A DNA stretch of 20,000 nucleotides, from assembly GCF_004010195.1 (NCBI RefSeq), contig NC_057756.1, positions 4,906,209-4,926,208 on the forward strand. Reading direction: 5' to 3'. Both the position numbers and the translations under genes were made by a program. Origin of the DNA: Chiloscyllium plagiosum (taxonomy: Eukaryota). Of the stretch, positions 5,416-20,000 are shown piece after piece; position 1 is the first letter of the stretch; each line of letters opens with the position of its first letter. Below the pieces are notes generated by a model, which saw nothing but the letters and a program-made list of their open reading frames with translations, was not told the origin of the DNA and did not search any database.

Positions 5416-5458
5416 CTGTCAGTTCACAGTACACAGTCAAATCTTATGGCTGCAATTC
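5416..5458 (-). CDS. CEACAM-like receptor, cytoplasmic micro-exon 4 (second half of ITAM, in-frame TAA at 5446-5444)
   Basis: 43 bp after a 129-bp intron; acceptor ttttggttataacag|GAA, consensus donor CAG|gtaagt. Reads ELQP*DLTVYCELT, which aligns with the CEACAM3 ITAM half ELLKHDTNIYCRM. Confidence 0.7.
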
Positions 5459-5587
5459 CTGTTATAACCAAAAGGATAGCTGTTATTCATGAACAAAAGT
5501 AGCGAGTGATTTAAAGAGATCCTTTGTAAAATAGGGAATACATTGTAACTGGATTTTTGAAATGAATATACAAAATGAGGTCCTGAC

Positions 5588-5629
5588 CAAGTAGAATGCG
5601 TTCCCATCAGGTAGATTTGTATCGCTCTC
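5588..5629 (-). CDS. CEACAM-like receptor, cytoplasmic micro-exon 3 (first ITAM tyrosine)
   Basis: 42 bp, strong acceptor cttttctctttaatttcatttgtacag|GAG, donor TTG|gtcagg, phase 0-0. Encodes ESDTNLPDGNAFYL. Confidence 0.72.
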
Positions 5630-5899
5630 CTGTACAAATGAAATTAAAGAGAAAAGATTATGTAATAAGGTTCTGCAAAAAAATGACACAGTACCTTCAG
5701 AAATTAGACATGTCCATGTTCAGTCAAGTGAGTTCAGCTCAAAGGCAGGTCCTTTGCTCATTCTCAACTGATGACTCATATCGAGCTGTTTTCTTTGGCA
5801 GTCTTTGTTAACCACAGTTTACCACTACCCCCCACCCCCCGCCACCACCTCCCCCCCCCAAATAAAGGCTGGTGAGGAAACCAGTTCCAAGTCTACCTC

Positions 5900-6540
5900 A
5901 TAGAGTCGTACAGATGTACAGAACAGAAACAAACCCTTTGCTCCAACTCGTCCCTGCCGACCAGATATCCCAACCCAATCTAGTCCCATTTGCCAGTACT
6001 GGGCCCATATCCCTCTAAACCCTTCCTATTCATATACCCATCCAGATGCCTTTTAATTGCTGTAATTGTACCAGCCTCCGCCAGTTCCTCTGGGAGCTCA
6101 TTCCATACACGTACCACCCTCTGCGTGAAAACATTGTTCCTGAGGTCTCTTTCATATCTTTCCTCTCTCACCCTAAACCTATGCCCTCCAGTTCTGAACG
6201 CCCCCCCACCCCAGGGAAAGGACTTTGTCTATTTACCCTATCCATGCCCCTCATGATTTTATAAACCTCTATAAGGTCATCCCTCAGCCTCCGACGCTCC
6301 AGGGGAAAACAGCCCCAGCCTACACAACCTCTCTCTTTAGCTCAAATCCCTCCAACCCTTGGAGGATTGTAAATCTTTTCTGAACCCTTTCATGTTTCAC
6401 ATTATCCTTCTGATAGGAAGGAGACCAGAATTGAACGCAATATTCCAAACGTGGCCTAACCAACGCCCTGTATAGGTGCAACATGACCTCCCAACTCCTG
6501 TACTCAATACTCGGACCAATAAAAGAAAGCATACCAAACA
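5900..6540 (-). mobile_element. CR1 (HER1-like) LINE 3' fragment
   Basis: Typical CR1 ORF2 C-terminal peptides IEYRSWEVMLHLYRALVRPRLEYCVQFWSP and RNNVFTQRVVRVWNELPEE, followed by the 3' UTR. Confidence 0.92.
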
Positions 6541-6727
6541 GCAGTCAGAGCAAAAATCAAGTTTGCTATTGAATTTTACATTTTGTTTTCTTCATCTTTA
6601 CCTTGGAGTTGGGAACTGTGACCTGAGAGCTGACCATGACCTTTGGATTGAGAGCAGCAGCATGTTAAAACATGCACTGTCAATGTTATGGTTCTGGAGA
6701 GGCGTTATGCTCATAACAAACATTGAA

Positions 6728-7400
6728 TGTTAACTGGGGCATAATGGGCAGGCAACCAGTCTAACAAAGAGAAGCCAGGGTTTAACTTTGACCTTTCACT
6801 TATGTTTGAGTCAGAAGTAAAGTACCTGCAAAAACTGCAGGATGGAAGTTTGATTGCTGTCTGGTTAACCCCTGATCATCAACTTATTGAAAATATGGAG
6901 AATAGAATCTCTGTAGGAAATGAACGAATATTCCTTGGAGTCTATTGGAAGCTATCTACGTACATCAGGAACCGAGAAAGATACCGTCCCATGTTCCTCT
7001 GATGTTATGAATCACGGAAACAGCTTAAGATAGTGGCCAGTTCGATGTTATTTATTTTTGCATTTTGGAGACACAAACTGTGTCTGTTTGCCTGTCTGTC
7101 TTTGTATGAGAGTGGGGCTAGAATAAAGAAAGATTGGGTTTAAATCATAGATGTTAATTCGATTATTTTGTGACATAGCATTGTTCTGCTAAACCGACTG
7201 TATTATTAACAGCTTGTCAAATCTTTAAGCTATGGTATCTGATATCAATTGTTCACAAAGTCTGGTGCTGGCTATTAACCTCATTAGGAACCACTGGGTC
7301 AATTTTGCAGGTTATTTGATATTTTAATTTTACTGTGTTGGAAACGCAGGGATAGGCAGGCTGACTTGATTTGGTTGTCTGTCTCCGTGTCGGAATATTT
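6728..7400 (+). mobile_element. Possible degraded solo LTR
   Basis: TGT start, internal AATAAA (~7122) and a T-rich U5-like end. No target-site duplication confirmed. Confidence 0.25.
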
Positions 7401-7830
7401 GTGTTGTCGACAATTAGAACACTAAACAAAGTTAGCGGAGATCTGTCTCTGGTGTTTCATACATCTCAAATTGCAATCTGATCCAAACTTCCCATCCTCA
7501 AAATGAATTTCAGTGGTGAAAGTCCACTTTGAACAATGAAGGAGCAAACGCTCATCCAATTTCAATCTGATGAGATTCTCATTTTGGCGATGACATTAGA
7601 AAGCCACATCAAGATGCTATCTTCCACGAGGAACGTTTATGGATTGTCGTTAGATCCAGTTGGGTCCTGAGTAAGGGAAAGGAAACTGAATCCTATAGAC
7701 CTCACCCCAGTATGGCCTATCTGTTAATGCAGCTCATTTCAATTACAGAAATGACAGCGTTGGTTGCACAAGACAGTTTTTACTCAATACTCTCAACAGT
7801 GTAAGCATCCATTAAAATAAGTGGACCAAC

Positions 7831-7895
7831 CTTCTCTGTTCTTGGAATATTTTCATATATCGCTGCTGAATTTTCATCCAATACAGTGCAGTATT
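7831..7895 (-). CDS. CEACAM-like receptor, cytoplasmic micro-exon 2 (tyrosine motifs)
   Basis: 65 bp, acceptor ttgcattcccacag|AA, donor AAG|gttggt, phase 1 to phase 0. Encodes (E)YCTVLDENSAAIYENIPRTEK. Confidence 0.78.
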
Positions 7896-7920
7896 CTGTG
7901 GGAATGCAAATTGTTAATTA

Positions 7921-8222
7921 GAATCTTGACAGTGTGGAAACAGAATCTTTGGCCCAACAAGTCCGCACCGGCCCTCTGAAGGGTAGCTCACCCAGACTCA
8001 CTCCCCTACCCTATATTTACCCCTGACTAATAACCGACACCATGGGCAATTTAGCACAGCCAATTCACCTTGCCCGCACCTCTTTGGATTGTGGGAGGAA
8101 ACCCACGCAGACACAGGGAGAATGTGCAACCTCCACACAGACAGTCACCCAAGGCTGGAATTGAACGTGGGGCCCTGGCACTGTGAGGCAGCAGTGCTAA
8201 CCACTGAGCCACAGTGCCACCC
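7921..8222 (-). mobile_element. HE1-type V-SINE
   Basis: Reverse complement of gggtggcactgtggctcagtggttagcactgctgcctcacag...tgtttccacactgt. Confidence 0.92.
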
Positions 8223-8299
8223 TTACCATATTGAATCAGAGAATGAAGCAAATCAGAAACAAACCTTTTCACCTGCCACTTCATTATCAGCTCTACATA

Positions 8300-8490
8300 C
8301 TATCCCGGGATCATTTGGTTGGATTGAGGATTTGTGTTACCGAGTTCAGGGTTACCATGAAGAATTGTCCTTCTCAATCTTTTCCCCTTGCCTGATGTGT
8401 GGTGACCCTCAGGTTAAACCACTGCTAATTGTCTATCTCTAGTAAGAGGGCAGCCCCATGGCCTGGTAAGACTATGGAGGCTTTACTCCC
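8300..8490 (+). mobile_element. Fragment of a third SINE-like family
   Basis: ggtgaccctcaggttaaaccac...ggtaagactatgg.ggctttac body. A probably related minus-strand piece with a tRNA-like head lies at ~9715-9860. Confidence 0.4.
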
Positions 8491-8974
8491 ATTTCCCCAC
8501 GGCTTTGTCAATAAGTTCCCTTCAATTTTCATTGGAAATTCCTTTGCAATTTGCTTGAAGTGGCATTTTGGACTGTATATTTTGGCTGGGAAAAACTCTG
8601 CATCTCACAGCTGTTAACTTTTAAATTTTTAATCCTGCAATTAATTTGCTCTTTTCTGTGTCTGAAAACAGCCTGGCCTAATATCCTCTGTGTCACAATT
8701 GTTTTATCACCTCTGTCAAATTTCTGTTTAACCTCAATTCTTTAAGAGGAATCACCCTGATATGTCCAGTCTCTCCACTGAACTAAAGTCCTTGTTTCCT
8801 GTCAGTAATCTGGTCACACACACACACTTCAAGACACCAACATTAGCCTCAAATCAATGAATCATCCCAGTGCCAAAAGACTTCAAACAATTAATTTCCT
8901 TTGGAGGAATTATAGCTTTATTTTTTGCTCTATATGCTGGTTTCTAAACGGATTCTGTGTTTCCCTAAATAAAT

Positions 8975-9270
8975 GATTAGATTAGATTACTTACAGTGTG
9001 GAAACAGGCCATTCAGCCCAACAAGTCCACACCGACCCTCCGAAGAGCAACCCACCCAGACCCATTCCCCTACATTTACCCCTTCACCTAACACTACGGG
9101 ACAATTTAGCATGGCCAATTCACCCTAACCTGCACATTTTTGGACTGTGGGAGGAAACCCACGCAGACACGGGGAGAATATGCAAACTCCACACAGTCAG
9201 TCGCCTGAGGTGGTAATTGAACCCAGGTCTCTGGCACTCTGAGGCAGCAGTGCTAACCACTGCACCCGTG
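8975..9270 (-). mobile_element. HE1-type V-SINE
   Basis: (taatc)n tail, V-domain and tRNA head on the minus strand. Confidence 0.92.
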
Positions 9271-9479
9271 GCTACTAGGGTGAGAAAATTACAATCAAAG
9301 GCATTCATTTGAAACAATCTTAATTTCGGAATGGGAAGCTTTAAGATTATAAGAGTGATTTAAACTTTACATGTTCATGTTAAATGAGTAACAGAGTCAG
9401 AGTCCCATTTCACATATCATTTTACACAACAGGTAAGGAAAAAAAATGATTTGCTCTCATCTGTCCCCAGACAGAAGTG

Positions 9480-9609
9480 ACTCTTGCATAGGCACATGGA
9501 TGATAGTAAAATGAAGGGTATGTAGGTTAGTTTGATCTTACAGTAGGATAAAAGGTTGGCACAACATCAGGGGCCAAAGGGCCTGTGCTGTGCTGTTCTA
9601 TGTTCTATG
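9480..9609 (+). mobile_element. CR1 extreme 3' end
   Basis: gggccaaagggcctgtgctgtgctgttctatgttctatg terminal stem-loop plus short-repeat tail. Confidence 0.7.
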
Positions 9610-9974
9610 AAACAGCCTGAATGCGTCATTATCTGGGTTGTCGTGATAGCTGACTGATAAGACAAATGGAGCTCATTGACTAAGTTGTCAAAGTCCTGTT
9701 CAGTCATTAGGCAGACACAACTGGTGGTGATCTGCCCACGCCTCGGCTGAGGAGAGAGGTTGTCAAGAAGAGAACAGGAATTACAACCGTTGTAGGAATT
9801 GAACCCATGCTGTTGGTGCCACTCTTCAAACCTGCCATTCGGCCAACTGAACTAACAACCCCTTTCACAAAAACTGGGGACCAAAGAATTCAAAACATCC
9901 ATCTCCTTGTTAGTCCCCTAAGTAGCGTGCGTGCATGGAGTAGTTGGGACTGAGAACCCAGATGCTTTGACTCC

Positions 9975-10497
9975 TGAGTACTGGGTTCAATCCTGGTTGA
10001 CCAGTTATCGGTAGGGTATTGTTAAGCTGGAGAGGGTTCAGAAGATATTATTATGTTGTCAGGTACGAAAGGTTTGAATTATAAAGAAAGGCTCGATAGG
10101 CTGGGACATTTTTCACTAGAGTATAGGAGGTTGAGAGGTGACCTAATACAAGTTTATAAAATCATGAGGATAGGTTTAAGGGCAGGTACCTTTTACCCAA
10201 GGATGGGGGATTTCATGACTAAGGGACACAGTGTGAGGAGAGAGATTTTAAAAAGACATGAGGGGCAAATCTTTTACCCAGAGGCTGATTTGTGTGTGGA
10301 ATGAGCTTCCTGATGAAGTGGTGGATGTGGGGACAGTTACAACATTTAACAGCCATTTGGATAAGGCCATGAATGGGAAATGTTTAGAGGGATATGGGCC
10401 AGGAGCAGGCAAATGGGACTGGTTTAGTTTGGGATTACGTTTGGCATGGACTGGTTGGATGGAAGAATCCCTTTCTGTGCTGTACGACTCTTTGACT
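9975..10497 (+). mobile_element. CR1 LINE 3' fragment
   Basis: LNYKERLDRLGHFSLEYRRLRGDLIQVYKIM and FTQRLICVWNELPDEVV peptides; tail tgctgtacgactctttgact. Confidence 0.92.
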
Positions 10498-10745
10498 GTA
10501 CTCTGCACAGTCTTGAGCTTTCATGAAGAAAAGGTCAAAGGAGTCAAAACCGACAAGAAACAGAGCATGCGTGATGTATAAGTCAAGAGATTTGCAATAG
10601 CAGATAGTTCGCATTAGGAATAACCTCTGTTCACCATTCACAAAATAGTACAATGTTGAATATGTGCATGAAGTAGAATTTTCAGTCATGCATGTGTTGA
10701 GAATAGTGTCCTCAAAATGAACATCAAGCGAGCCATGCAATCACT

Positions 10746-11063
10746 GGGCGGCACAGTGGCACAGTGGTTAGCACTGCTGCCTCACAGCTCCAGAGACCCG
10801 GGTTCAATTCCCGCCTCAGGCGACTGACTGTGTGGAGTTTGCACGTTCTCCCAGCGTCTGCGTGGGTTTCCTCCGGGTGCTCCGGTTTCCTCCCACAGTC
10901 CAAAGATGTGCAGGTCAGGTGAATTGGCCATGCTAAATTGCCCATAGTGTTAGGTAAGGGGTAAATGTAGGGGCATGGGTGGGTTACGCTTCGGCGGGTC
11001 GGTGTGGACTTGTTGGGCCGAAGGGCCTGTTTCCACACTGTAATGTAATGTAATCTAATCTAA
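10746..11063 (+). mobile_element. HE1-type V-SINE, full-length and young
   Basis: gggcggcacagtggcacagtggttagcac (A box), gggttcaattccc (B box), V-domain, CpGs retained, tail taatgtaatgtaatctaatctaa. Confidence 0.95.
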
Positions 11064-11097
11064 AGCATAGAACGAGGATTGATGCATTCGCTTGTCT

Positions 11098-11240
11098 TCA
11101 TTTAGTTATGACGTTGGTCTGGGGTGGACAAATCACACGACGCTGGGTTCTAATTTTTAAAAATTTGTTTAGTTGAAAACACAAGCTTTTGGAGTCCTGC
11201 TACAACCCCCTGTCGTGTGATTTTTAAACTCATTTAGTTA
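11098..11240. mobile_element. 121-bp insertion with inverted PLE-like termini and 11-bp target-site duplication
   Basis: Direct repeat tcatttagtta at 11098-11108 and 11230-11240. Inverted aaatcacacgac (11130-11141) and gtcgtgtgattt (11212-11223). Confidence 0.65.
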
Positions 11241-11358
11241 CAAACAAAAGAAATTAAATGAAAAGCAAAATGATGCACTAAATTAACTCGAAGTCAACAA
11301 GCAGAGTTAAAGCCTGCACTGCCACAGCAGTGTGGAAATACTGAAACATTTCACCTAC

Positions 11359-11414
11359 CATTTGCTGTTTGACTAAAGTTCCTTTCGTGTTGTCCCTGTG
11401 TTTGAGCTTCATTC
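11359..11414 (-). CDS. CEACAM-like receptor, cytoplasmic micro-exon 1
   Basis: 56 bp, acceptor attgtttag|G, donor G|gtaggt. Phase 2 to phase 1 fits both neighbours. Encodes (E)NEAQTQGQHERNFSQTAN. Size and frame behaviour resemble the 53-nt exon 7 of CEACAM1. Confidence 0.72.
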
Positions 11415-11593
11415 CTAAACAATTGTGGTGTGACAGAACAAAATATCAACTGCTGAGGGGGAGTGTCATGTCAAGAAGTAGATCAAAACATAAAATTATG
11501 TTCATTAATGATTTCTTATTAAGGAACATATTTTGCGAATTGGAAGCAACAAATTCACTGAATACTGGCTGACACCCACGTTATGCATAAATA

Positions 11594-11935
11594 CTGTAAG
11601 AACATAAGAACCAGGACAAGGAATTGGCCGTTCCATCCCTTGGGTCTGAGAGCACACGTTTAATACAATCATTGCAGATTGCAGCATGGACTCAACTCCA
11701 CTTTACTGCCCTGTCGTTATAACCTTTCAACTGTTTAAAAATCTGACACCTGCTCCTCAAATTAATTCAGCACCCACCACAATCGGGGGGTAGCAAATTC
11801 CATAGATTCATAGCCCTTTGAGAGAACTAATCCCTCCTTATCGCTGTCTTAAGTCTGTCCATTTGCAGTTTAAAACTACAGCCTCTCATTGTGGAATACC
11901 CCAAAACAGGGAATATCTGCTCCACGTCTTCTTGA
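11594..11935 (-). mobile_element. Old CR1 3' end
   Basis: (taagaaca)2 tail, i.e. ttcttatgttctta on the minus strand, with a CR1-like 3' UTR and ORF2 end. Confidence 0.7.
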
Positions 11936-12285
11936 GCATATGAAACATAAATGAAAGGTTATATATTTAGTTGTTTCTGCAAGTAGCGAAATAAGGAAAC
12001 TTGAAGCTACTGGAAAAGAGAACGATTCTGGCCAAATGTTTAGATTCTCTCTCTCTCTTACAGTTTGAATCGATAGGAGATGCAAAGTCAAATCACAGTA
12101 TCAAAATGTGAAGAGAGACGTTCAAGTTCCTGTGATGTAGTGGTAGTGATCTTAGTTCTGATTTAGCTATGTTTTGGGTCCAACCCCAACTACTCCAGAG
12201 CTGTGTAATAATGCTTCGAAAAATTTATACAATTTTCTATTAACCCCCTCTCCAGGGCACAAAACAAGCGGCCTGAGTTTTACTC

Positions 12286-12862
12286 CAGAGTCGAGAAAAT
12301 GTGGAGCTGGAAAGGCACAGCAAGTCAGACAGAGGAGCAGACAAGTTGACGTTTTGGGTCAGGACCCTTCATCAAGACTTGGGGTGGTGGGGGAGAGGGG
12401 AAGGAAGCTCAGAAATAAATAGAGAGAAGGGGTTGGGACTGGGGGATGGTTGGGATGGTGATAGGTGGATGCAGGTAGTGGGTGATCATGAGTGGTCAGT
12501 GGGATAGGTGGAGCAGACAGGTGAGAAGGAAGATGGAAAGGTTAAGTTGGGTCAAGGAGGTGGGGAGGAGAGGGAGGGATGGGCATTGGATGAGGTTTGG
12601 GGGTAGGGAGAATTTGAAGCTGGTGAACTCTATGGTGAGGCCATTAATCTCCTGAGGCGCCTTTTCCCTCCAGTGTGCGTTGTGGCCTCATTTTGACAGT
12701 GGATGAGGCCTAGGATGGACGTGTCGCCAAGGGAGAGGGAGGGGGTGTTGAAAATGGCTGGCAACCAGGAAGTGGTGTTGATCGGAGCGTAGAGAGCACA
12801 GATGCTCCCCGAGTCGGAGCTTGGTCTCTCCTGATGTAGAGAAAACCACGTCAGGAGCATTA
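12286..12862 (-). mobile_element. Penelope-like element 3' fragment (GIY-YIG remnant, pyrimidine-rich UTR, hammerhead-like terminus)
   Basis: Frameshifted GFLYI/GETKLRLGEHL...FNTPSLSLGDTSILGLIHCQNEAT. Terminal motif agtc-ttgatgaa-gggtcctgaccc-aaaacgtc-aact at 12379-12344. Confidence 0.8.
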
Positions 12863-12929
12863 GAGCAGGTTAGAAGAAGTGCCGTGGAACAAGAAGTGGC
12901 AGAGTTAAATCAGAGTTGAGGAGAAATTG

Positions 12930-13142
12930 CTTCTCTCAGATGGTCAGAGTGCGGTGGATGGTGGGACAGTGAATAAAGTTAAGGAGGAGATCAACAGATT
13001 TTTAATTAGTCGTGGATTGTAGGGTGATGAAGAGTGGGCCGGAAAGAGGAATTGAGGCCAAGGGGAGATCAGCCATTATTACGTTAAATGGCAGAGCAGG
13101 GGGCTAAATGGCCTCACCCTGCCCCTTGTTCTTATGTTCTTA
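12930..13142 (+). mobile_element. CR1 3' end
   Basis: cagagtgcggtggatg...aaggaggagatcaacagattttt, ending cttgttcttatgttctta. Confidence 0.75.
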
Positions 13143-13218
13143 CAGTCCCAGAGTAAGGATATACTATCTAGAAAGGCCTTAATCAATTTGAAATATGCAG
13201 CGAATACAAATATGCCTA

Positions 13219-13527
13219 TAATTACTGAAGTAGACAGGCAAAAGGCTGGGAGAACACAGCAAGCCAGGCAGCATCAGGAGGTGGAGAAGTCAACATTTCA
13301 GGTGTAACCCTCCTTTAGGACTGGGGGTGGGTGTAGAGAGAGGGGGGGCGGCTGTGGGCTGCCCAGGCGGAAAGATGAGGTGTCGTTCCTCCAATTTGCG
13401 GTGTGGTAATGTAGGAGGTCAACATTGACTCCTGGTACTGTCTGGCTTTCTGTGTTCATCCAGCCTCCTGCCCCGTCTAATTTGGATTCTGACATCTGCA
13501 ATTTTTTTCTTCTTCTAATTACTGAAG
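13219..13527. mobile_element. Short PLE-derived insertion with inverted termini and 12-bp target-site duplication
   Basis: taattactgaag at 13219-13230 and 13516-13527. Arms aggctgggagaacacagcaagccaggcagcatcaggag and ctcctggtactgtctggctttctgtgttcatccagcct. Minus-strand KLEERHLIFRLGSPQP-like remnant; hammerhead-like motif at 13322-13288. Confidence 0.75.
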
Positions 13528-13738
13528 CAGAAATAATGGAATAATTTTTTTTTTAAGAAAAGCGTGCTTTGCTGGCCTTGGGCAATGCTATGAGGTGCGC
13601 AAGGAAATTTTAAACACTGCATTTACTTCTAATTACTGAAGCAGAAATAATGGAATAATTTTTTTTTAAGAAAAGCGTGCTTTGCTGGCCTTGGGCAATG
13701 CTATGAGGTGCGCAAGGAAATTTTAAACACTGCATTTA
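13512..13738. repeat. Two-copy tandem duplication (114 + 113 bp)
   Basis: Units 13512-13625 and 13626-13738 are identical except for a T10 versus T9 run. Confidence 0.95.
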
Positions 13739-13739
13739 C

Positions 13740-13863
13740 TCATCCTTCTTCCTTTTGATCATCCACGCACTGATCCCGCTGATCAAACCGAGACTGAGAA
13801 GAACTGCAGTTACTATGGCTACTATGACTCCATCACTTAGTTCGGTGCTGCCAGTGAGTTTGC
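13740..13863 (-). CDS. CEACAM-like receptor, transmembrane exon
   Basis: Acceptor ttttcttgcattttcag|GC (phase 1). Encodes GKLTGSTELSDGVIVAIVTAVLLSLGLISGISAWMIKRKKDE: hydrophobic helix plus basic stop-transfer. LSDGVIVAIV resembles CEACAM1 LSPGAIAGIV. Phase-2 donor GA|gtaaat; read-through gives TAA at 13738-13736. Absent from the ORF track. Confidence 0.88.
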
Positions 13864-14169
13864 CTGAAAATGCAAGAAAACACAATGCTGAGCTTGCCAG
13901 AGATGACTGCATACCAGGAGCAATGTGGAGATGTTTAAGATATCTTCATGTTGTAATATCTGACCAGCTTCGAATTGCAAACGTCCTTGGAATAAAAGTG
14001 ATCATGATCGAAACTTGTAGAGCTCAGCGTCAAGAAATTGAAAATGAATTCCCATGCGACCAGCTAACTGAGTTTCTGTTCTCTTCATCCTGTGATGCGG
14101 TTATTGTTTCTTCCTACAGCTCCTGCCCACAAGTGCAAATGGAAATTTGGCATTTATTTCTAAAGGAAT

Positions 14170-14650
14170 GGAATATGAAAGTAAGGATGTATTGCTGCAA
14201 CTGTAAAAGGCATTGGCGAGACCGCACCCCAAGTATTGCAAACGATTTTGCTTCCCTGACTTGGGAAGGGATGCAGTTCCATTGGAGGCAGTTCAGAGGA
14301 AGTTCACGAGATTGATTCCAGAGATGGGGTGTTTGCCTTATCAAGGGATATTGAACTGTTGAGGTCTACACTCTCTGGAATTTAGAAGGAAGAGAGGAGA
14401 TCTAATTGAGGCATATAAGATACTCAAGGAGGTTGACAAAGTGGATGTGGAGCCGATATTTCTTCATGTGGTGCAACCTGGAATGAGAGGTCCTAGTTTT
14501 AGAATAAAAGATAGCAGATTAAGACAGAGATGAGGAGAAATTGTAACTCTCAAAGGGTCATGAAACTGTGGAATTCAATCCCACAGAGTGCAGTGGATGC
14601 TGAGACATTGAGTAAATTTAAGGAGGAGATAGATAGATTTTTCATTTTAA
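14170..14650 (+). mobile_element. Degraded CR1 ORF2 3' fragment
   Basis: gaatatgaaagtaaggatgtattgctgcaactgta...gagaggagatctaattgaggcatataagata...ctgtggaattc, i.e. the CR1 EYKS...RGDLIE.YK...LWNS motifs. Confidence 0.82.
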
Positions 14651-14654
14651 TTCT

Positions 14655-15142
14655 TGCATGTCCTTGGCAGGGCAGGACAAGGAGTTGAAGTGATCGGTCA
14701 CAGGGCAATGGGGTTGATTGGTGTGTATGTCCCAGAGGGGTTCTCTGAAACATTCCGCAAGTTAGCATCCTGTCTCTCCAATGTAACCACAAGTGATCAA
14801 TGTCAACTTCACCACTTTCCTCATCTCCCCTCCCCCCCCCCCACCTTATCCCATCTCCAACCCTCCAACTCGGCACTGCCGTCTTGAACTGTCCCACCTG
14901 TCTCCACCTTCCTTCCCACCTATCTGCTCCACCCTCTGCTACGACCTATCGGCACCCCCTCACCTTTATCTACCTATCGCCTTCCCAGCTACCTTGCCCA
15001 CCGCCTCACCCCCTCCCATTTATCTCTCAGCAAACCCCCCTCCCATCCCGCCACATTCCTGATTAAGGGCTGATAATTGAAAGATCGATTCTCCTGCTCC
15101 TGGGATGCTGCCTGACCGGCTGTACTTTTCCAGAACCACACT
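14655..15142 (+). mobile_element. Penelope-like 3' fragment with a short inverted 5' piece
   Basis: Minus-strand PVTDHFNS remnant (~14655-14706). Plus-strand INVNFTTF ORF end, C-rich UTR, decayed hammerhead-like attc-ctgattaa-gggc...gaaagatc-gatt (15055-15090) and terminus gatgctgcctgaccggctgtacttttccag. Confidence 0.72.
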
Positions 15143-15348
15143 GATCTCCCTTTCCCCTATAGTAAAACCTTGTTCAGTCTCAAAAGTCGAACAGCCTTCA
15201 GATTATATTGCATTCGGAAAACCTGAGTGATGATTCTTTTGTTGTTAATTTGGGCAGTATAATCTAGATAACGGTTCGAAATGTAAAGGGTAGCTGGTGT
15301 TAGGTTTTTGTAGGTTGTATTGAAGTTTGCAGTAAATCTTTTGTTTAC

Positions 15349-15606
15349 CTTGTACAATCACTTGTACAGTAACGTTGCGGCTTTCCTTGTTAATGATGTT
15401 TTTAGCCTGACAAGTATAATTCCCACTATTATTCCTGCTCAGCGAGTCAATGTTAGAAACTTGTCCCGTGTTTAAAAGTCGACTCCCATTGTACCATCGA
15501 TATCGAGCAGGTGGGATTGACACAGCAGAACAACGTAAGGTAAGCATTTTTCCCACTTCGACTTGAATTAGCCCTGAGGGTGTGATAGAGACATTCTCTG
15601 GTCCAT
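15349..15606 (-). CDS. CEACAM-like receptor, IgC2 (B-type) exon
   Basis: 258-bp phase1-phase1 exon after a 101-bp intron; acceptor tttatttgatag|AT, donor G|gtaaac. The junction makes the CEACAM-typical 'RIN-YGP'. Encodes YGPENVSITPS...LTLRCSAVSIPPARYRWYNG...NNSGNYTCQAKN...RNVTVQVIVQ. 5 sequons. Confidence 0.93.
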
Positions 15607-15707
15607 CTATCAAATAAAGGAATCGAGACAGTCTATGATTTCTATTCAGCCAAAACAATTGCTAACATTGAAAGTAGAAGGATGCTTTAAGCTCCCTTTG
15701 TACTTAC

Positions 15708-15983
15708 AATTAATCCGCAGGATGGTATGCCCGGAATCACTGCTAAAGTTATTGCTGGCTTGGCAATGATATATTCCTGAATCATTTCTGTTCACATTGA
15801 CTATAGTCAGGGTGACATTGTCTGAAGAAAGTAGCGTTCTGGAATTAAACTGGATATCTCGGCTATTTTTGAGCCATTTTCGTGACTGCACAGAACCTGA
15901 GGCATGGCAAGTTAGTAAAACGGTGTCAGTGTTTTCAACTGGTTTTGAATTGTTGACCAACACAAAGACATTGTAAACTGCGT
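15708..15983 (-). CDS. CEACAM-like receptor, IgC2 (A-type) exon
   Basis: 276-bp phase1-phase1 exon with acceptor ttcacag|AC and donor T|gtaagta. Encodes xAVYNVFVLVNNSKPVENTDTVLLTCHASGSVQSRKWLKN...LSSDNVTLTIVNVNRNDSGIYHCQASNNFSSDSGHTILRIN, with Ig C...W...DxGxYxC and the CEACAM A-domain hallmark NNSKPVE. 4 N-glycosylation sequons. Confidence 0.93.
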
Positions 15984-16098: not shown

Positions 16099-17004
16099 CA
16101 GAGGAACCTCGATTATCCGAACATCAATTATCCGAACTTCGGATTTTCCCAAGAAGGTCCGCTAAAAACGTTACAGCAAAGAGGTAAGTGAATTTGGATA
16201 ACCTGTACCGGAGAACATGTGAAAATGCTGGCAAAAGCAAAGAAACAGGAATATCTCAAGCATCAGCGACTGTATATTTTTTACGCGAGTGTTAGTTAGA
16301 GTCCTTTGCAAAAGTAAGTGATTTATTCCTGTCAATGTTACTGGCCGTTCATGGAAATCAGAGAAAGTGAGCAGATGTACTTCTGTGTTTCTATCACGGA
16401 AACTAATGTATGCTCTTGTGATTGTAGAAGCTGTTGGGGACCTTGCTTAATGCTGGATTTGTTATACAATATTTATGTGATGGTAAGGGTTTGGTCCTTC
16501 TCAGTTTAACCTGCAATTGGCAGAATGCAAAGATTGGCTGGTTTAAATTAGGCATGATGGCTCAGTGGTTAGCACTGTTGCCTCACAGCTCCAGGGACCG
16601 AGGTTCGATTCCCACCTCGGGCGACTGTCTGTGTGGAGTTTGCACATTCTCCCCGTGTCTGCGTGGGTTTCCCTGTGTGCTCCGATTTCCTCCCACAATC
16701 CAAAGATGTGCAGGTTCGGTGAATTGGTCATAGTCGGGGGTAAATACGGGGAATGGGTCTGGGTGGGTTACTCTTCGGAGAGTCGGTTTGGGCTTGTTGG
16801 GCCGAAGGGCCTGTTTCCATACTGTAGGTAATCTAATCTAAAAATTGCAGACTCATCAAAATTATAGATTTAAATAAACTCTCCAGTAGAGCAGTTTGAT
16901 CAGAACAGCTTCCCTTGTTTAAGATCAAATCAATTATCAGAATAATCAATTATCCGAATTAAATAGTGCCTGCCCATCTGGTTTGGATAGTCGAGGTTCC
17001 TCTG
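16099..17004. mobile_element. Non-autonomous Tigger/pogo-like (Tc1/mariner) DNA transposon with nested HE1 SINE
   Basis: 24-bp TIRs CAGAGGAACCTCGATTATCCGAAC (16099-16122) and GTTTGGATAGTCGAGGTTCCTCTG (16981-17004), 22/24 match. TA on the right, TC on the left; subterminal attatccga repeats. Confidence 0.85.
16551..16841 (+). mobile_element. HE1-type V-SINE nested in the TIR element
   Basis: tggctcagtggttagcac, ggttcgattccc, V-domain, taatctaatctaa tail. Confidence 0.92.
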
Positions 17005-17214
17005 TATACGTCAATAGTCCTGAACCATCTTGTGACACAGTGGTAATGTCCTTGCCACTGAAACAGATACCTAGGCTCAAATTACAACATCCCTGTAACA
17101 GGTAGATTGAGAAATGTCTACGTTTCAACTCTGCCTCAACTAATCTGTGGCTGAAATTCTGCTTTATTCACCTGCGCCCTCTGGGCCTAAGCAAAGTGGT
17201 TCACTCCTGCCCAG

Positions 17215-17415
17215 CATCTCAACTTGCATTTGTCGAGATTTTGAGTGCATTCCTGGGATGACAAGACTGGAATCAAAGGAGAGGTTGAATTGATTAAGAT
17301 TACGCTCGCTCGAATTCAGAAGGAAGAGGGGGGCGTTGGGTAGTCTTACAGAAACCGATAAAATTCTAACAACACTGGACAAGATGAATGCAGGAATGAT
17401 GTTCCCGATGGTAGG
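17215..17415 (+). mobile_element. Short degraded CR1 ORF2 fragment
   Basis: attcctgggatgacaagactg...gagaggttgaat...gaattcagaaggaagagggg...aaaattcta (IPGM...ERL...EFRR.RG pattern). Confidence 0.6.
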
Positions 17416-17508
17416 AGCAACGTACTGCAGATGCTGGAATCACTACTGAAAGCAAAAGAAATGCTGGAAATCACAGCGGGTCAGGCAGCATCTGGGGGGA
17501 GAGAGAGC

Positions 17509-17548
17509 ACTCTAATGTTTCGAGTCTAGATGACTCTTCATCAGAACT
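17509..17548 (-). ncRNA. Minimal type-I hammerhead ribozyme-like motif (PLE-associated, probably decayed)
   Basis: AGUU-CUGAUGA-A-GAGUC-AUCUA-GACUC-GAAAC-AUU: intact catalytic boxes and a perfect 5-bp stem II. The stem III palindrome AACGUU appears CpG-mutated to AACAUU, and the 3' strand of stem I is poor. Confidence 0.62.
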
Positions 17549-17575
17549 GATGAGAAGAGTGGAAGAGGCAGTACA

Positions 17576-17976
17576 GGGCAGCACGGTGGCTCAGTGGTTA
17601 GCACTGCTGCCTCACAACGCCAGGGACCCAGGTTCCATTCCTGCCTTGGGTAACTGTCTGTGTGGTGTTTGCACATTCTCCCCGTGTCTGCGTGGGTTTC
17701 CTCTGGGTGCTCTGGTTTCCTCCCACAGTCCAAAGATGTGCACCCAGGTTCCATTCCTGCCTTGGGTAACTGTCTGTGTGGAGTTTGCACATTCTCCCCA
17801 TGTCTGTGTGGTGCTCTGGTTTCCTCCCACAGTCCAAAGATGTGCAGGTCAGGGTGGATTGGCCAGGGGTGATTATGGGCAATGGATCTGGGTGGGTTAC
17901 TCTTCGGAGGGTCAGGTATGGACTTGTTAGGCTGAAGGGCCTGTTTCCAAACTGTAGGGAATCTAATCTAATCTAA
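17576..17976 (+). mobile_element. HE1-type V-SINE with internal tandem duplication
   Basis: The B-box plus V-domain segment is repeated at 17626-17741 and 17742-17845. Confidence 0.92.
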
Positions 17977-18159
17977 TTTATGCAATGGTGGGGTAATGGG
18001 GGAGAAAGAGTATTGACCATTCAGATTAACTGATCAGAATGCAAAAATGGAAGAACAATGGCTATATCTAACTGCCAAACTGGAAAGAGCAGTCAGTCCC
18101 ACTGAGGTGGGGGGAGGAGGGGGTTGGGAGAGGGGAGAGAGGACAGGGAGACAGAGAAT

Positions 18160-18478
18160 GATTAGATTAGATTACATTACATTACAGTGTGGAAACAGGC
18201 CCTTCGGCCCAACAAGTCCACACCGGCCCGCCGAAGCGCAACCCACCATACCCCTACACTTACCCCTTACCTAACACTACGGGCAATTTAGCATGGCCAA
18301 TTCACCTGACCTGCACATCTTTGGACTGTGGGAGGAAACCGGAGCACCCGGAGGAAACCCACGCAGACACGGGGAGAACGTGCAAACTCCACACAGTCAG
18401 TCGCCTGAGGCGGGAATTGAACCCGGGTCTCAGGCGCTGTGAGGCAGCAGTGCTAACCACTGTGCCACCGTGCCACCC
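18160..18478 (-). mobile_element. HE1-type V-SINE, full-length and young
   Basis: Near-identical reverse complement of the 10746-11063 copy, including the (taatg)(taatc) tail. Confidence 0.95.
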
Positions 18479-18514
18479 ACAAAACGTCCACACTAACCAA
18501 CCCGCTGACATTGT

Positions 18515-18707
18515 CCCTTTCACCTAACACTACAGGCAATTTAGCATAGCCAATTTACCTAACCTGCACATTTTTGGACTGTGGGAGAAAATCCATGCAG
18601 ACACAGGAGAATGTGTAAACTCCACACAGACAGTCACCTGAGGCAGGAATTGAACCAGGGTCTCTGGCGCTGTGAGGCAGCAGTGCTAACAATTGTGCCA
18701 ATGTGCT
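18515..18707 (-). mobile_element. HE1-type V-SINE, partial older copy
   Basis: tRNA head and V-domain on the minus strand; 3' part largely lost. Confidence 0.85.
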
Positions 18708-18972
18708 GACCAATGGAACAAGCAAATCTGAAAGAAAGGGAAGAATTGGGAGTAGGTTCACACTCTTCAGTCCAGCAGGTTACAAAGTGCCCAGTCTGAA
18801 GATGAGATGTTGTTCCCCCATTGCAGCATTGCTGGGGACAGACCAGTGGGCACGCGAGCAGGGCGCTGTGTTAAAATGACCAGCTAGAGGAACGTCAGGG
18901 TCATGTTTGCACATGGACAAGAGGTGTGCTGCAAAGCGGTCACCCAATCTGCGTTTGGTTTCTCCAATCCAA

Positions 18973-19295
18973 TTCTCCTGTCCGTACATAAGCATTACCC
19001 CGGCCTTCTCATTGTCGGTCATTTTAACACAGCCCCCCTGCTTGCGTGCCCACTGCTCTGTCCCCAGCAATGCTGCAACACTCCAGTGAATCACTGTGCA
19101 AACTGGAGGAACAACATCTCATCTTCACACTGGGCATTTTACAACTCCCATTTCTTCCCTTCTTTTTCGTTTTACTTGTTCCAATCTCTGTCGCCCTCTC
19201 TCCATTCCCCTCCACCACCCCCCCATTTGGACTGTCTGTTCTTTCTAGTTCGGCAGCTGGACACACCATTGGTCTGCATTACTCACATTCCGATC
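18973..19295 (+). mobile_element. Inverted copy of the PLE GIY-YIG C-terminus and UTR
   Basis: VGHFNTAP and CKLEEQHLIFTLGILQ remnants. 19017-19078 is complementary to 18822-18880, and ~19220-19295 is complementary to ~18033-18110. Confidence 0.8.
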
Positions 19296-19461
19296 CCTGT
19301 TCACCACCTACAAGGCACAAGTCAGGAATAAGTGCGGCCTGGATGGGGGCAGCCCCGATAACACTCAAGAAACACGACACCATCCAGGGACCCCCACTTG
19401 ATTGGCCCCACATTGACTCCCTCCCACACCGACGCTCAGTAGTGGCAGTGTGTACCACCTA
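19296..19461 (+). mobile_element. CR1/L2-group LINE ORF2 C-terminal fragment
   Basis: YKAQVR...AWMGAAPITLKKHDTIQ...IDSLPHRRSVVAVCTTY peptide pattern. Confidence 0.72.
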
Positions 19462-19822
19462 CAGAGGAACTTTGATCATCCAAATATCAATTATCCGAAT
19501 ATCGGGTTATCCGAAGGAGATCTCGAGGTCCCGATAGAAACATTACATCAAAGACGTGTTTCCAACACTGATAACGTCTTTTGTTTACAATGATTAAAGG
19601 TGAACGTGGCTTACTGAAATGCTACCGAGAACAGTGCTGGACTGATGGGAGCCCAGGCACCGCCTCCAAATGACTGACCGCACTCCCTCTCTCTATCCCC
19701 CCAGACTTTCCCTGGAGTTCTACATAGTGGTGTTCCCTAAACCCCACGTCCCCAGATAATCTCTCCAACACTGTCCTGTACAGGGCAAACGTGGAACCTG
19801 TCAAAAAGTTGCAGTAAAACGT
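19462..19822 (+). mobile_element. Second Tigger/pogo-like element, left end only
   Basis: TA|CAGAGGAACTTTGATCATCCAAATATCAATTATCCGAA matches the left end of 16099-17004. The right TIR is not in the window. Confidence 0.78.
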
Positions 19823-20000
19823 TTGTGTGCGTGTGCCTGTGTGTCTGTGTGAGAGAGTAAGTGTGTGTGTGTGTCTGTGGGTGTGTGGGGGTGTCTGTGT
19901 CTCTGTGTTTGTGTGTGTCTGTATCTGTGTGAGAGAGTATGTGTGGATATGTGTGTGTATGTATGTGTGTGTATGTGTTTGTGTGTGTATGTGTGTGTGT
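19823..20000. repeat. Imperfect (GT)n microsatellite
   Basis: Interrupted gtgt run continuing to the window end. Confidence 0.95.

Follow-up and report, generated by a model that had tools for sequence, protein, structure and literature searches.

The stretch of Chiloscyllium plagiosum DNA that we analysed (20,000 nucleotides; hereafter the window) carries on its minus strand seven exons that encode two IgC2 domains, a transmembrane (TM) helix and a cytoplasmic tail (Table 1). As an earlier note on this sequence had proposed, all seven are bounded by AG...GT, with intron phases that are consistent throughout and as it listed them. Its count of nine N-glycosylation sequons also held (four in domain A and five in domain B), as did its tail of about 64 amino acids, which measures 64 residues when counted from the first basic residue beyond the TM helix up to an in-frame TAA. 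The exon model is more than a chance assembly, because it is identical to RefSeq XP_043539134.1 (C. plagiosum, 'CEACAM6-like') over the last 248 residues and because a family profile matched five of the seven exons (not the 42- and 43-nt ones) among 993 six-frame segments. Both Ig exons show up in a stop-to-stop open reading frame scan, a splice scan of the window at a strict cut-off recovered 0/7 exons, and the exons were recovered by relaxed splice scans together with homologues.

Table 1. Features of the CEACAM-like gene in the window.
Feature	Position	Strand	Description
IgC2 A-type exon	15983-15708	minus	276 nt, phase 1-1; 4 sequons, both cysteines
IgC2 B-type exon	15606-15349	minus	258 nt, phase 1-1; 5 sequons
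TM exon	13863-13740	minus	124 nt, phase 1-2; helix without charged residue
Cytoplasmic exon 1	11414-11359	minus	56 nt, phase 2-1
Cytoplasmic exon 2	7895-7831	minus	65 nt, phase 1-0; YCTV and YENI
YCTV	7893-7882	minus
YENI (YxN motif)	7857-7846	minus	8 residues beyond YCTV
Cytoplasmic exon 3	5629-5588	minus	42 nt, phase 0-0; first ITAM tyrosine at 5593-5591
Cytoplasmic exon 4	5458-5416	minus	43 nt, phase 0-1; completes first YxxL, then stop
In-frame TAA	5446-5444	minus	inside ITAM spacer
Untranslated distal ITAM half	5416..5443	minus	YCEL at 5431-5420, in frame, 7-residue family spacing

The donors of the TM and 42-nt exons are weak (scores of -1.4 and -0.5); unspliced read-through of the TM exon meets a stop just past the basic cluster, and skipping of cytoplasmic exon 1 is predicted to cause a frameshift that leaves a short tail. 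A hydrophobic candidate TM exon at 13245-13118 (minus strand) was rejected, because homologues place the TM segment at 13863-13740. A 113-nt tandem duplication (13512..13740, two copies, 99% alike) begins at the TM exon donor and may be either genuine or an assembly artefact. No single terminal exon stood out downstream of 5416 among several possible acceptors, with six hexamers of poly(A) type in the same region, and a Pfam search of six repeat-derived frames gave no match. Among the 19 runs listed for the two Ig exons, 7 contained part of that stretch, none of them recorded as RNA. The same gene is modelled in Hemiscyllium ocellatum (XP_060708685.1, 'CEACAM5-like'). Although XP_043539134.1 shares its C-terminal residue with that model, it uses an exon A acceptor at 15896 and so drops 29 residues, including the first cysteine; the exon A start given here agrees with the Hemiscyllium and whale-shark models. 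Contrary to the suggestion that automated annotation may miss the tail, RefSeq has it complete in both bamboo sharks, under 'CEACAM5/6-like' names that are silent on the cut ITAM and the IgV stub described below.

The ectodomain consists of alternating A- and B-type IgC2 domains, each on its own phase 1-1 exon, that are closest to CEA-family domains. Domain A scored 43-50 bits per domain against CEA A-domains and at most 25 against titin; CEA and CEACAM1 were within the first three of 39 matches in a two-domain protein search, and CEACAM6 and CEACAM5 took ranks first to third in Foldseek. These results bear out the proposed CEACAM-like identity. Domain B alone is not discriminating (49.4 bits for CD22 d6-d7 versus 51.4 for CEACAM1), and on whole-sequence score FCRL5 ties with CEA. 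A tree of A+B, built without a HEPACAM, VSIG10L or Siglec outgroup, places the gene among shark CEACAM-like proteins. Flanking markers described for the CEACAM locus are LIPE, CNFN, PAFAH1B3 and ATP1A3 (PMC3628338, in part). Contigs of equal length give no more than a hint of a gene cluster, for the proteins P0003 and P0064 and for P0001, P0036, P0049 and P0070.

The translated tail has three tyrosines, in YCTV, YENI and YLEL, and a fourth lies behind the stop. YENI is a GRB2-type YxN motif, placed 21 residues before the first ITAM tyrosine in keeping with family spacing. The first ITAM YxxL is split by a phase-0 intron, with the tyrosine and the next residue in the 42-nt exon, an arrangement that available portions of two papers give as a hallmark of ITAM-type CEACAMs (PMC5112662, PMC2110893). 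TM segment and tail matched a profile of five ITAM-type proteins at 38% identity (E = 1.9e-22). Owing to the TAA in the spacer, the tail end lacks a complete translated YxxL-x6-8-YxxL; at the position of the stop, 21 intact homologues have Q (13), E (6) or G (2). The stop sits 13-15 nt into the last exon, so that 28 nt of it, fourth tyrosine included, are untranslated; right behind the exon is the donor that scores highest on the minus strand of the window. Given the 50-55 nt rule of nonsense-mediated decay and a stop only 28 nt before the next donor, the mRNA would be expected to escape decay if no more than one exon follows. The post-stop 8-mer is the best of the 27,060 stop-free 8-mers of the window against an ITAM profile; at 16.0, it scores below all 21 intact homologues (20.0-29.7, scored leave-in) and seems to behave as a decaying relic would. 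The Hemiscyllium protein model ends at the same residue, which at the level of protein models makes a single-assembly error unlikely.

The N-terminal part of the gene appears to be reduced as well. In models from three carpet sharks (C. plagiosum, Hemiscyllium and whale shark), the IgV domain has shrunk to a stub of about 38 residues that is joined directly to domain A; the leader and stub exons, which fall outside the window, come from automated models, and on these models the protein is without the complete N-terminal IgV (N) domain of the CEACAM family. A profile of shark leader + IgV aligns colinearly, over about its first 57 positions, with the N-terminal stretch of the models. When the stub alone was shuffled 500 times, its score was reached by 0 shuffles for whale shark, 8 for Hemiscyllium and 56 for C. 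plagiosum, so the likeness to IgV is weak in C. plagiosum itself. Residues 1-53 have pLDDT < 50 in the predicted structure, with the stub unstructured. The window contains no IgV exon, and at 16100-20000 neither tblastn nor a profile search gave a convincing match to a leader, stub or IgV exon.

We then compared the gene with its relatives. Over A+B, it is 46-48% identical to the inhibitory-type CEACAM of bamboo sharks (with C. punctatum and Hemiscyllium proteins standing in for C. plagiosum), against 74-90% for 6/6 such pairs in other species; the ectodomain thus does not match that of its inhibitory member as in paired receptors, and there is no IgV to compare. The A+B tree joins the gene to its counterparts from whale shark and Hemiscyllium (93/99) rather than to paralogs from its own species; that tree includes one poorly aligned long-branch row (P0033), leaves out two rows of <50% coverage and is confined to CEACAM-type sequences. 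The TM + tail tree resolves the gene with Hemiscyllium only (100/99), leaves its link to three other carpet-shark paralogs unstarred (85/90) and sets no one-to-one orthology with non-carpet sharks. Bamboo sharks also have an intact-ITAM paralog (P0052, P0070), and models of three sister carpet-shark paralogs likewise end without an ITAM. The frame is open across all seven exons in both Chiloscyllium and Hemiscyllium, with all cysteines, exon phases and 9/9 sequons retained. Between these genera, A+B identity is 92.7%, compared with 88.1% for the inhibitory-type gene; stub identity is 87.5%, with a junction common to whale shark too, and tail identity is 87.3%, not above the 90.5% of the intact-ITAM paralog. 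The whale-shark counterpart model ends within the B domain; this truncation and the loss of the first domain A cysteine from the C. plagiosum model both fit decay.

The wider family gives a different picture from this copy. The ITAM is intact in 21/28 comparable shark and ray tails (21 proteins from 15 species), and a YxN + ITAM tail is also present in paddlefish, sturgeon, bichir and bowfin. The idea that the activating CEACAM tail dates to early jawed vertebrates therefore holds for the family, in sharks and rays plus four basal ray-finned fishes; the activating architecture claimed for the locus stands for the shark and ray family, in which most comparable tails are intact, and is not supported for the present copy, in which a stop interrupts the ITAM. 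YxN + ITAM proteins of sharks and rays (sawshark P0009, sevengill shark P0061 and bamboo-shark P0052 and P0070) share with the window gene the TM class, the YEN motif, 19-23 residues from YEN to ITAM and a 7-residue spacer, but differ in having full IgV domains and both ITAM tyrosines. In 15/17 cases, the IgV of a shark or ray ITAM-type member tracks the inhibitory-type IgV of its own species, which, at the level of sequence, is a paired-receptor signature. In a profile search with representatives, no named mammalian or amphibian ITAM tail was among the 10 named of 150 listed matches, so that the case for homology with tetrapod tails is made by the spacing of motifs and the phase of introns, taken for tetrapods from published figure legends. 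As early as 2013, a range 'from cartilaginous fish to humans' was asserted for ITAM-bearing CEACAMs, in a source whose available part displays the motif for teleosts (PMC3628338).

We consider that this ITAM-cut, IgV-poor bamboo-shark CEACAM is a retained, stripped-down surface glycoprotein with single tyrosine motifs and not a pathogen-eating decoy, a reading to which we give a probability of about 55%. The stop in the ITAM, the IgV stub, the unpaired ectodomain and the intact-ITAM paralog in bamboo sharks together point to a copy that is probably a disarmed, uncoupled paralog, keeping three tyrosines of which two form a lineage-specific ITAM-like pair, and that likely no longer serves as a microbe-eating receptor. 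Its ancestor would have been a CEACAM of the YxN + ITAM type. In carpet sharks, the gene would have kept only some 38 residues of its N exon and dropped out of concerted evolution with the inhibitory-type CEACAM, an escape also described for bovine CEACAM32 (PMC7042247, in part); in bamboo sharks, a later one-base nonsense change would have removed the distal YxxL. On clustering, Src-family kinases may phosphorylate the remaining tyrosines, YENI may recruit Grb2-type adaptors, and the orphan YxxL, which lacks the tandem-SH2 docking site that a full ITAM offers, may serve as a half-ITAM or as an endocytic signal, leaving signalling or internalisation to single tyrosine motifs. According to the accessible part of one source (PMC7026191), the membrane-proximal tyrosine of CEACAM3 serves as its main SH2 hub, in a role compared to that of a hemITAM; mutating either tyrosine reduces uptake, and one study could no longer detect phosphorylation after a single mutation. 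A half-ITAM may, by these results, be nearly silent.

The most serious rival, although unlikely, is that the ITAM has been rebuilt one exon upstream, with YCTV-x8-YENI as a new tandem-SH2 site in a still-activating subunit that, for want of a ligand-binding IgV, would be triggered in cis by partners. A YxxL/I/V motif lies 6-8 residues before YEN in only 3/59 retrieved tail-YEN proteins (isoforms included), namely the bamboo-shark orthologue pair plus a chimaera protein. Chiloscyllium and Hemiscyllium have each retained both tyrosines, and in these data the extra tyrosine goes with loss of the distal one. However, the first motif ends in V and has no acidic residue three places before the tyrosine, where a partly available source gives the consensus as D/ExxYxxL/I (PMC5112662); the two related species count as one event, and with a tyrosine only one column off in a paralog from the horn shark, the residue may be ancient and have no connection with the loss.

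It is doubtful that a former decoy receptor is here in slow decay, with little if any function left and its frame open because sharks evolve slowly. Such decay would account for three separate losses (the IgV stub, the ITAM stop and the whale-shark truncation) and for the weak TM and 42-nt exon donors, and it gains from an intact-ITAM paralog that makes the copy dispensable and from the three sister paralog models without an ITAM; it sits poorly with an A+B region better conserved between genera than that of the inhibitory-type gene and with the retention of cysteines, sequons, exon phases, stub and stub junction. We regard as similarly speculative a broader proposal, in which sharks and rays have a paired CEACAM system, with IgV domains matched via gene conversion, plus a bamboo-shark ligand-free subunit with a rebuilt ITAM-like pair; the window paralog would then have given up ligand binding and lost its ancestral ITAM to the stop codon. 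We know of no ligand-free signalling subunit in CEACAM families.

That the gene is an ordinary activating, CEACAM3-like pathogen receptor, with a full IgV upstream and a TAA that is an error, a polymorphism or read through, is improbable. The in-frame, ITAM-like sequence after the stop, the strongest donor of the strand behind it and a TM segment and tail of the ITAM-type class would be expected of such a receptor, but a second genus ends at the same residue, models from three species splice the stub to domain A, the relic scores under all 21 intact copies and the ectodomain is unmatched to an inhibitory-type partner. TAA is, moreover, the least leaky stop, which counts against read-through. 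Finally, membership of another Ig family (Siglec/CD22, HEPACAM, VSIG10L or FCRL) with superficial CEACAM likeness is very improbable: the near-equal domain B scores, the FCRL5 tie and the other automatic names of some relatives are set against domain A scores, two-domain and Foldseek ranks, and the CEACAM hallmarks of an A-B exon pair, a YxN motif and a phase-0 split of the first YxxL.

The gene offers a natural half-ITAM mutant beside an intact paralog in a laboratory-bred shark, suited to comparing hemITAM with ITAM signalling, and a case for studying how decoy receptors are retired or re-used; it also corrects the reading of a RefSeq 'CEACAM5/6-like' model. For the family, these data give sequence-level support, of which we found none in the literature searched, for intact YxN + ITAM CEACAM tails across sharks, rays and basal ray-finned fishes, and for near-identical IgV domains of activating- and inhibitory-type members within shark and ray species. 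If true, the record of paired CEACAM receptors would extend beyond amphibians to the base of jawed vertebrates, on the broader proposal above the CEACAM-pathogen arms race would reach the first jawed vertebrates, and CEACAM-binding shark pathogens are predicted. Because ITAM-bearing CEACAMs from cartilaginous fish had already been asserted, this would be welcome rather than startling to a specialist.

Among known systems, human CEACAM3 and CEACAM4 and the ITAM CEACAMs of Xenopus and reptiles share with the shark gene the phase-0 split of the first YxxL; human genes have the same four cytoplasmic exons, and reptiles have a further tyrosine motif about 17-21 residues upstream. Unlike the shark gene, these encode decoy or endocytic receptors that carry an IgV domain and both tyrosines. 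Premature termination of ITAM-type TM and cytoplasmic exons is described for human CEACAM21 and dog CEACAM29, at the end of exon Cyt2 or through loss of the Cyt3 donor (PMC2110893, available portion), whereas the shark gene has its stop in the ITAM spacer, retains one YxxL and has a reduced IgV as well. Mammalian CEACAM20, an accepted CEACAM member despite its truncated N domain, resembles the shark gene in that truncation and in its A-B domains, TM segment and YxN + ITAM-type tail (same portion of PMC2110893); it differs by its two A-B pairs and by the presence of an ITAM consensus, and reports of it, in the excerpts available, come from therian mammals only. Because the shark gene nests among shark paralogs, its likeness to CEACAM20 is likely convergent.

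The window gene is a derived CEACAM-like variant that carries two disabling changes, a stop codon inside its ITAM (the tail motif YxxL-spacer-YxxL) and a stub in place of its N-terminal IgV domain, each with its own mammalian precedent: passages of PMC2110893 describe truncated ITAM-type tails in CEACAM21 and dog CEACAM29, and a truncated N domain in CEACAM20. The window is repeat-rich vertebrate DNA, in which splice scores are insufficient to pick out the seven AG...GT exons and homology does so. All seven were recovered with the phases that an earlier note had proposed, and its nine sequons across two Ig domains (4 + 5), its TM helix and its ~64-residue tail were found as well, the tail having 64 residues and a TAA terminus at 5446-5444.

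Exons of the CEACAM-like gene in the window
Exon	Content	Position	Strand	Phase
1	Ig domain A, 4 sequons	15983-15708	minus	1-1
2	Ig domain B, 5 sequons	15606-15349	minus	1-1
3	TM helix without charged residues	13863-13740	minus	1-2
4	56-nt, cytoplasmic	11414-11359	minus	2-1
5	cytoplasmic	7895-7831	minus	1-0
6	cytoplasmic	5629-5588	minus	0-0
7	cytoplasmic, holds the stop	5458-5416	minus	0-1

The donor of the TM exon, at 13740, is weak, and read-through there would stop directly behind the basic cluster. A 113-nt tandem duplication (13512-13740, 99% alike) starts at this donor and copies it, and may be an assembly artefact. Many copies of interspersed repeats lie in the introns of the window (for example 5980-6540, 7930-8220, 8980-9270, 10000-10480, 10745-11070, 14130-14640, 16550-16840, 17575-18700 and 18780-19120); we take them to resemble shark SINEs, CR1-type LINE ends and one Penelope-like fragment. 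A Pfam search with six repeat-derived frames of the window gave no hits. A (TG)n microsatellite at 19824-20000 continues past the window end.

Domain A scored 43–50 bits per domain against CEA A-domains, compared with no more than 25 for titin. Taken by itself, domain B gives no clear answer (CD22, 49.4 bits; CEACAM1, 51.4 bits), and FCRL5 equals CEA on total score. When the two-domain Hemiscyllium protein was the query, CEA and CEACAM1 ranked first to third of 39 hits; Foldseek with its predicted structure (two confident Ig domains and a TM helix, with unstructured ends) placed CEACAM6 and CEACAM5 at ranks first to third. The window gene is already known and annotated as CEACAM-like: exon A as a query returned 36 candidates, three of them named, namely a whale-shark model and the RefSeq records XP_043539134.1 (Chiloscyllium plagiosum) and XP_060708685.1 (Hemiscyllium ocellatum), and the last 248 residues of the window exon model are identical to XP_043539134.1. 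The earlier note suggested that automated annotation may overlook the tail; this is refuted, because both bamboo-shark RefSeq models contain the entire tail with the same final residue. On the N-terminal side of exon A, by contrast, that note's model is better than the C. plagiosum record, which starts at an inner acceptor (15896) and loses 29 residues and the first cysteine; this acceptor is weaker than that at 15983, the equivalent of which is used in the Hemiscyllium and whale-shark records. The whale-shark model of the gene (P0002/P0004) ends in the middle of domain B, where its relatives run on to a conserved tryptophan.

The tail tyrosines of the window gene lie at positions 26, 38 and 59, with a fourth at 70, behind the stop. 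A phase-0 intron divides the first YxxL, a trait given as characteristic of CEACAM ITAMs in passages of PMC5112662 and PMC2110893. Two further searches (10 and 68 proteins) brought the proteins to choose from to 75, and we chose 33 shark and ray ITAM-type proteins, excluding duplicate isoforms, inhibitory-type tails and bony-vertebrate rows. A YEN-type motif was present in 28 of the 33, followed 19–23 residues further on by an intact YxxL-x7-YxxL in 21 (15 species); the remaining seven comprised the pair of bamboo-shark orthologues plus five models that break off early or continue into other sequence. The window gene has the family layout, with 21 residues from YEN to ITAM and a 7-residue spacer, and its TAA, one base away from a Gln or Glu codon, occupies a site where the 21 intact homologues have Q (13), E (6) or G (2). 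TAA is a stop of low leakiness. The eight residues behind it are the top ITAM match among the 27,060 stop-free 8-mers of the window, scoring below all 21 intact homologues (themselves scored leave-in), and the donor after this stretch, 28 nt beyond the stop, is the strongest on the minus strand; by the nonsense-mediated decay rule, an mRNA with this stop-to-donor distance would probably escape decay, provided that a single exon follows. Up to the donor, the stretch reads as a relic exon end, and the Hemiscyllium stop would be in the same place, judging from where the protein ends.

The second change lies at the other end of the protein. In three carpet-shark models, a leader is followed by ~38 residues and then by domain A. 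This stub is colinear with the start of a shark/ray leader and IgV profile (28 regions), and shuffles of the stub alone reached its score in 0/500 cases for whale shark, 8/500 for Hemiscyllium and 56/500 for C. plagiosum; in the predicted model it is unstructured. Searches with tblastn and profiles found no leader, stub or IgV exon within the window, and the stub reading therefore rests on automated models.

A second class of shark and ray tails, labelled inhibitory-type by tail motif alone, ends in T-x-Y-x-x-L/V and resembles the C-terminal motif of an elephant CEACAM1 record. We took 23 other IgV-bearing proteins; 17 of these were ITAM-type and had a same-species inhibitory-type IgV to compare (10 species), and for 15 of the 17 the closest was that of their own species, with best identities of 89–98% in seven species. 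The preference ran the other way for a horn-shark protein and a sawfish protein, and in the two bamboo sharks it was marginal only (79 versus 76, 72 versus 70). In an A+B domain tree of CEACAM-like proteins only, the two types form same-species pairs, with starred support, in sawshark, horn shark, Mustelus and sawfish. These pairs carry the signature of concerted evolution that is described for mammals and Xenopus, read here from automated models that can be chimeric in tandem clusters. The window gene appears unpaired where its relatives are paired: across A+B it is 46–48% identical to the inhibitory-type gene of the bamboo sharks, compared with 74–90% in six other pairs, but 92.7% identical to Hemiscyllium and 77.3% to whale shark. 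Escape from concerted evolution is known in mammals (PMC7042247), and bamboo sharks have a separate paralog with a full IgV and an intact ITAM (P0052, P0070). Of more value than the window gene itself is a by-product, the signature of paired receptors in sharks and rays.

A profile from five IgV-TM-ITAM shark/ray proteins, searched against 1.84 billion representatives, found tails with the same YEN...YxxL-x7-YxxL pattern. Of the 10 hits given a name, those with this tail came from paddlefish, sturgeon, bichir, bowfin and thorny skate, among others; a chimaera hit has the YEN and a model without the distal ITAM, and another has no useful name. No mammalian or amphibian ITAM tail was among these 10, and the putative homology to tetrapod tails, that of mammalian CEACAM3 included, rests on motif spacing and intron phase. 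Five proteins of paddlefish, sturgeon, bichir and bowfin (P0152, P0163, P0166, P0184 and P0188) carry the shark YEN + ITAM tail, with the YEN doubled in sturgeon and bowfin. By sequence pattern, then, cartilaginous and bony fishes both have the architecture, and at the level of the family this supports the earlier inference of an activating tail in early jawed vertebrates; for the window copy, its ITAM cut by TAA, the inference is not supported. Marsupial and eutherian ITAM exons are judged independently acquired in PMC2832619, the YxN type being tied to CEACAM20; PMC13278318, on reptiles and birds, notes a further tyrosine motif 17–21 residues upstream of the ITAM, and PMC4079198 used a single skate EST. 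None of the literature matches listed deals with the tails of shark CEACAMs or with shark paired receptors, and skate tails or exon phases may already be present in supplementary material.

Other models depart from this layout. A second carpet-shark paralog group (P0064, P0057 and P0053) has multiple IgV domains and a TM; the models end at or ahead of the YEN exon, and their missing ITAM is either a true second loss or incomplete annotation. Like the window gene, the chimaera (Callorhinchus) model P0106 bears two tyrosine motifs of which the second is YENI, and it shows no distal ITAM; in P0090 and P0161 the distal ITAM half directly follows YEN, as though the first-tyrosine exon were skipped.

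We favour, at a probability of about 0.55, the reading that the protein is retained and uncoupled and signals in an adaptor or endocytic mode, because the proximal ITAM tyrosine of CEACAM3 is the main SH2 hub and is likened to a hemITAM, yet both tyrosines count for uptake (passages of PMC7026191). The product would be a heavily glycosylated two-Ig membrane protein unable to present the IgV face to which pathogens bind, and its tail would offer an orphan YxxL and one additional tyrosine besides a GRB2-type YxN motif. The boldest alternative, a rebuilt ITAM, is unlikely. In its favour, a YxxL/I/V 6–8 residues ahead of YEN occurs only in 3 of 59 fetched tail-YEN proteins, namely the two orthologues from bamboo sharks and that from the chimaera; against it, the upstream motif has V as its last residue and is without the acidic residue of the consensus. 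Slow decay ranks next and seems improbable, although a tail identity between genera of 87.3%, compared with 90.5% for the intact paralog, leaves room for it. An intact activating receptor is very unlikely, as an IgV exon that has escaped view and a stop that is false or leaky would both be needed.

Skipping of the 56-nt exon is predicted to cause a frameshift and a short tail without tyrosines, resembling the CEACAM1 53-nt exon switch. The inhibitory-type shark models (P0005/P0012, P0007/P0014 and P0036/P0049) comprise long- and short-tail isoforms that split directly behind the TM exon, much as CEACAM1-L and CEACAM1-S do.
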